In this document: positions 45,081 to 47,972 of the stretch, in pieces
How positions within the stretch are numbered: the first letter of the stretch is position 1
Layout of the letters: every line of letters begins with the position of its first letter
Source: Escherichia coli
GTDB taxonomy: Bacteria; Pseudomonadota; Gammaproteobacteria; Enterobacterales; Enterobacteriaceae
Assembly: GCF_016026235.1 (NCBI RefSeq)
Contig: NZ_CP065613.1
Strand: one strand, 5' to 3'
DNA length: 64,000 nucleotides
The notes under the pieces: generated by a model
What the model was told of the DNA's origin: nothing
The model's input: only the letters and a program-made list of their open reading frames with translations
Databases searched by the model: none
Position numbers and translations under genes: made by a program

Positions 45081-47972
<2,892 letters not shown>

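Follow-up and report, generated by a model that had tools for sequence, protein, structure and literature searches.

Coulondre, Miller, Farabaugh and Gilbert are said to have found in 1978 that the amber hotspots of lacI lie at CCAGG, which is regarded as the classical proof that the 5-methylcytosine of Dcm sites is a hotspot for C-to-T change. Very-short-patch repair, in work attributed to Lieb and to Bhagwat and McClelland, reportedly leaves CTAG scarce and CCWGG in excess in E. coli. CCWGG is by now an established hotspot for G:C to A:T transitions in this species, via deamination of 5-methylcytosine to thymine (PMC13250602). The T:G mismatch is repaired by Vsr mainly in stationary phase, and this timing is the accepted reason why the hotspot persists (PMC3527292; PMC2715241).

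Here, we compared a stretch of 64,000 nucleotides of Escherichia coli DNA (hereafter the window) with these described systems, starting from an amber codon in cheA. The cheA stop is genuine and stems from a C-to-T change at the inner cytosine of CCAGG; its biology is ordinary and the phenomenon was already known. The change resembles the lacI hotspots in its motif, in the second C as the base that is hit, and in the conversion of an in-frame CAG within CCAGG to TAG. However, the lacI mutations were selected in a laboratory reporter, whereas the mutations described here are natural ones that a wild lineage has fixed in its flagellar and chemotaxis genes, and methylation is presumed from the sequence of the site. 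The footprint of Vsr is likewise recognizable: CTAG is found only 10 times in 64 kb, two of these being the new ambers, while CCWGG occurs 166 times in the whole window versus 95 times in shuffled sequences, and the two new CTAGG are the T:G-derived products that Vsr normally prevents. Nothing in the window shows, however, that Vsr fails more often here than usual. A third point of comparison is the loss of motility in Shigella, enteroinvasive E. coli and non-motile STEC. As in these bacteria, several independent lesions are found in one flagellar cluster of a genome rich in IS600 and ISEc60. The difference lies in the genes that are still open in the window, namely flhDC together with 10 of the 13 other genes of the cluster (flhA, flhE, cheZ, cheY, cheB, cheR, tap, tar, cheW and motB), which indicates that its decay is recent and partial. 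The features discussed below are collected in Table 1.

Table 1. Positions of the altered genes, former Dcm sites and neighbouring elements in the 64-kb window.
Feature	Position	Strand	Details
Lambdoid prophage remnant beside yecN-cmoAB-torZ	1-~21000		Three IS600 copies: 4754-6017, 15821-17084, 19408-20677
flhB with amber at codon 345 of 382	34413..35561	-	Product of 344 aa
Former Dcm site CCAGG (template strand of flhB)	34527..34531	+	Inner C 34528>T; within CCTAGG 34526-34531
Two-gene cassette between flhB and cheZ	35797-38026	+	502-aa HD-domain dGTPase (PADLOC dGTPase model, E=1e-70) and overlapping 250-aa ORF
Third Dcm-site change, in tar	43182..43186	+	Ancestral CCTGG; inner C 43183>T
cheA pseudogene	45081..47041	-	99.4% identity to K-12 cheA; broken by 4-bp deletion and amber
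Former Dcm site in cheA	45308..45312		Ancestral CCTGG on plus strand, CCAGG on coding strand; now CCTAG/CTAGG, within palindrome CCTAGG 45308-45313
Amber TAG in place of CAG (Gln579) in cheA	45309..45311	-	From base comparison with relatives
4-bp deletion GTAG within short direct repeat GTAGCGGTAG	Junction 46240/46241	-	cheA nt 802-805, codon 268; frameshift upstream of amber
ISEc60 (IS4-like) splitting motA	48237..49528		1,292 bp; apparent target duplication ~11 bp

The amber codon of cheA is present inside CCTAGG as reported in the initial annotation. The plus strand of the window reads cacaattccctaggtagctt from 45300 to 45319, and the codons on the minus strand around the stop are AAA ACC GAA GCT ACC TAG GGA ATT GTG, translated as ...KTEAT*GIVVILQSGGRR, with TAG at 45311..45309; over a longer span the translation is ...VFNVAGAKTEAT*GIVVILQSGGRRYALLV.... 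In the list of open reading frames, cheA appears in three pieces (46223-47095, 45309-46187 and 45081-45302). The plus-strand base at 45311 is A in the window and G in both K-12 and FDAARGOS_943, the closest relative. Hence CAG and not CAA, the codon against which it was tested, is found at this position in both relatives; the ancestral coding strand was ACC CAG GGA, in which CAG encodes Gln579 of the 654-aa CheA. The same bases agree with the earlier proposal that this was once a Dcm site mutated at the inner cytosine of the coding strand: CCAGG occupies 45312..45308 on that strand, and the mutated base, 45311, is its second C, now T. CCTAGG itself is found in the window only at 34526 and 45308, compared to 6.25 occurrences in dinucleotide-preserving shuffles. 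Being rarer than in the shuffles, it is neither a common nor an engineered motif, and it does not behave as an assembly motif either. Both occurrences are derived, with CCAGG/CCTGG at both sites in FDAARGOS_943 and K-12. That the match between the two ambers extends to the sixth base has no significance, as a C chances to precede CCAGG at both sites.

The amber in flhB, which had been put forward as a partner event, is also real and affects the inner cytosine of a Dcm site on the strand opposite to that hit in cheA. Here, the C-to-T change at 34528 on the plus strand converts the coding-strand TGG of Trp345 to TAG at 34529..34527. Moreover, our comparison revealed a third change at a Dcm site, in tar, where the transition at 43183 turns codon 410 from CAG into CAA and is thus synonymous. 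Both FDAARGOS_943 and K-12 carry the ancestral CCAGG/CCTGG at all three sites. A STEC-like outgroup is ancestral at the flhB and tar sites and itself carries the amber at the cheA site. Ambers are the only stop codons that can come from such Dcm-site changes, either directly from CAG or from TGG via the other strand.

To place these changes among all substitutions of the lineage, we made use of the 5,426 complete E. coli genomes, 5,381 of which have a match to the region. The best of these is FDAARGOS_943, which aligns collinearly with the window over ~37 kb at 99.9% identity. All differences between the two were polarised with two outgroups, K-12 and a clone that is more distant. The window lineage has acquired 13 substitutions: 11 G:C to A:T transitions, one C-to-A and one A-to-G change. 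Three of the 11 transitions, the two ambers and the change at 43183, affect the inner C of CCWGG. In the sister lineage, there are 10 derived substitutions including five G:C to A:T transitions, none of which affects a Dcm cytosine. With 99 CCWGG sites in the 37,041 bp of aligned sequence, Dcm cytosines make up 198 of 18,396 G:C pairs (1.08%), and with uniform rates three or more hits in 11 transitions would be expected with a binomial probability of 1.9e-4. The data agree with an ordinary hotspot of about 10- to 50-fold. The possible nonsense mutations give a similar picture. Over the 15 genes that run from flhE to flhD, 1,513 single-base routes lead to a stop codon, 400 of these being G:C to A:T transitions; 21 of the 400 (5.25%) are at Dcm cytosines, and both ambers fall there by chance with P=0.0028. 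The earlier statement that two ambers in CCTAGG are unlikely to be a coincidence is therefore borne out, and the third hit in tar strengthens it. Since the hit in tar is synonymous, the excess is mutational and not a result of selection for knock-outs. The counts are small (three events), and the window was noticed for these very ambers, so that any estimate of hotspot strength from them is inflated by ascertainment. Polymorphism across seven loci was found at 1 of 40 Dcm cytosines versus 90 of 4,192 other G:C positions, a comparison that carries no information on the rates, as the loci were chosen for these variants and the majority-rule ancestor is biased.

Together, these observations make it highly probable that the cheA amber results from spontaneous 5-methylcytosine deamination at a Dcm site, that is, from an ordinary, species-wide hotspot acting in genes under relaxed or negative selection, without a mutator state specific to the lineage. 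In this scenario, Dcm would have methylated the second C of the CCAGG held by the ancestral coding strand ACC-CAG-GGA, and deamination of this base to thymine would have left a T:G mismatch. If left uncorrected by Vsr endonuclease until replication, this mismatch would have become fixed as CTAGG with its in-frame TAG. The amber at Trp345 of flhB and the silent CAG-to-CAA change in tar would be products of the same process on the opposite strand. All of these mutations may have persisted because this IS-laden, enteroinvasive-like E. coli lineage no longer maintains its motility genes.

An alternative would be that the lineage itself is unusual. The rate of 5-methylcytosine transitions could be raised in this enteroinvasive-like clone, either through a defect of very-short-patch repair, caused by a damaged or poorly expressed vsr or by a lifestyle with little time spent in the growth phase when Vsr is active, or through an unusually strong effect of Dcm, and this could drive gene decay disproportionately. 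The share of Dcm cytosines among the transitions (27%) is indeed at the high end for a 10-fold hotspot (P=0.086 for at least 3 of 11), and the sister lineage has none. Hotspot factors of 20-50 fit comfortably, however, and the difference between the window and its sister (3/11 versus 0/5) is not significant (Fisher P=0.51). Moreover, the window was selected for these mutations, and the same changes are found in unrelated E. coli without any sign of a special state. We therefore consider a raised transition rate improbable, and a lineage-specific disturbance of repair or methylation as its cause equally doubtful. The weaker very-short-patch repair suggested in the initial annotation as a possible contribution specific to this lineage is unsupported and unnecessary. 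The genes in question lie elsewhere: blastn with the K-12 dcm-vsr region and tblastn with both proteins gave no homologue within the 64-kb window, and in K-12 coordinates vsr is located ~39 kb beyond its right end. In the sister genome, dcm-vsr was not found at the K-12-syntenic position (NZ_CP065615 640000-689999), a stretch made up of a P2-like prophage and islands. If the rate were raised after all, Dcm deamination would account for about a quarter of the recent point substitutions of the clone and for most of its nonsense pseudogenes, and it would drive a parallel and predictable pseudogenisation, exemplified by the same Gln579 amber in cheA, across non-motile E. coli lineages.

The ordinary hotspot is also supported by the recurrence of the changes in other E. 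coli. We searched the 5,426 genomes with 45-base queries centred on the variant, so that any megablast seed word necessarily includes the variant. The T allele at tar 43183 was found in nine other genomes, where it lies on two or more additional haplotypes that depart from that of the window within 33-84 bp in both directions. Occurrence on three haplotypes means that the change arose at least three times, which is hotspot behaviour and a clear case of natural homoplasy at a Dcm site. For the flhB amber, no second occurrence was found in the 5,426 genomes, and three derived transitions outside Dcm sites that served as controls (40188, 42437 and 47049) were found in none of them. The 45-mer with the cheA amber had exact matches in five of the 5,426 genomes, all belonging to one STEC-like clone (2014C-3011, SMN013SH2, SMN152SH1, SMN197SH3 and OkiPb01679). 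In each of the three genomes of this clone that we examined, cheA is annotated with an internal stop and flhC as frameshifted. The clone differs from the window at ~110 of 9,741 bases (about 1.2%), which is twice the distance to K-12, and it has neither the 4-bp deletion in cheA nor the flhB amber nor the dGTPase insert between flhB and cheZ.

The cheA allele could nevertheless have a single origin and have been exchanged with the STEC-like clone by homologous recombination, in either direction. Over 1.4 kb (44551-45953), the window, FDAARGOS_943 and the STEC-like clone share one haplotype and are identical except at the amber position, and a short conversion tract would leave no trace in such a background. 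The allele is very rare, however, being confined to the one clone mentioned above, and the window lineage and this clone have no other flagellar lesion in common. In addition, the Dcm-site change in tar does recur on different haplotypes. We thus regard exchange of the allele as unlikely, and even if it did take place, the mutation would still have originated at a Dcm cytosine. Within the STEC-like clone, the frameshift in the master regulator gene flhC (locus 15699-16276) is accompanied by the cheA amber and, in one member, by an amber in cheZ, a pattern of stepwise decay of the motility regulon. This cheZ amber of 2014C-3011 (locus position 5034) is a CAG-to-TAG change in GCAGG and thus not at a Dcm site; taking the window lineage and the STEC-like clone together, three of four nonsense mutations are at Dcm cytosines.

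Less probable still is a coincidence, in which the ambers would be replication errors or transitions of unmethylated cytosines that happened to fall within CCWGG. G:C to A:T changes dominate in the window lineage anyway (11 of 13 substitutions), but the uniform-rate probabilities given above for the two ambers and for the three hits speak against such an explanation, as does the finding that two of the three Dcm-site changes are also present in other lineages compared to none of the three controls. The weakest of the alternatives, that nanopore base calling produced ambers that are not in the DNA, is effectively refuted, although such miscalls are also apparent transitions confined to methylated CCWGG and 93-98% of the variants discrepant between nanopore and Illumina data of E. 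coli were in Dcm motifs in one study (PMC6703438), since, unlike these errors, the changes in the window are reproduced in independent assemblies, which are identical to it at every derived Dcm-site base that they span. The truncated FlhB of 344 aa is encoded on 20 contigs from independent public data sets, and the Logan assemblies SRR3578993 and SRR30892832 span the flhB site with 100% identity. The GenBank draft contig LSGL01000029.1 matches the window at all three Dcm bases, with a single difference, at 39537, in 21,035 bases (24527-45561), and the cheA amber is an annotated internal stop in complete genomes from several laboratories. Proteins of the window carry the accessions STM86623.1 and STM86612.1, which are labelled Escherichia coli.

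Compared to K-12, the region carries four lesions: the ambers in flhB and cheA, the 4-bp deletion in cheA and the insertion in motA. The frameshift at codon 268 of cheA had been missed in the initial annotation. As it lies upstream of the amber, the amber sits in a reading frame that is disrupted in any case, and one or both of these cheA lesions were neutral at the time they appeared. The proposal that methylcytosine deamination drives gene decay in this lineage thus stands only in part: with two ambers it is one contributor, but the cheA deletion and ISEc60 in motA show that it is not the sole driver. Decay proceeds here by deamination alongside slippage-type deletion and IS insertion. ISEc60 is absent at motA in FDAARGOS_943, although this genome has 38 copies elsewhere, and enteroinvasive strains also carry the element on large plasmids. 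FDAARGOS_943 has lesions of its own (in locus coordinates), namely a 1-bp insertion that frameshifts cheZ (13928) and an IS600 beside yecT (5716-6977), as well as IS1 copies in araF and in an ftnB-like gene (32492-33189 and 34533-35230). These differ from the lesions of the window, which indicates that the two lineages are decaying independently. Two derived G-to-A changes, at 51291 and 51897, are located in the leader and promoter region of flhDC upstream of flhD.

The window also revealed neighbouring elements. The cassette between flhB and cheZ is shared with FDAARGOS_943 and absent from K-12 and the STEC-like clone. Its smaller ORF has no match in Pfam or PADLOC, and the cassette probably represents an anti-phage module acting by nucleotide depletion, in which the partner of the dGTPase is uncharacterised. 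The best relatives of the prophage remnant are prophages of enteroinvasive-type E. coli (96-97% identity). A prophage-borne cytosine methyltransferase was considered as well and rejected, as tblastn with the DNA methyltransferase annotated in the nearest related prophage, that of strain RMDEC332, gave no match in the window, and the prophage ORF tested (2274-3095) encodes antiterminator Q.

Overall, what our comparison adds is modest: both the amber and the silent change recur naturally in other lineages, where the cheA case may represent an independent mutation or a short recombination tract. Apparent variants at CCWGG need to be checked against the known nanopore artefact, and for the typing of E. 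coli and Shigella clones, identical nonsense alleles at CCWGG should not be taken as shared ancestry. The locus provides a natural example of a textbook mechanism, in which Dcm makes an in-frame CAG or TGG inside CCWGG the likeliest site for a new stop codon. Unrelated lineages in which motility is no longer under selection can then acquire the same amber again and again.
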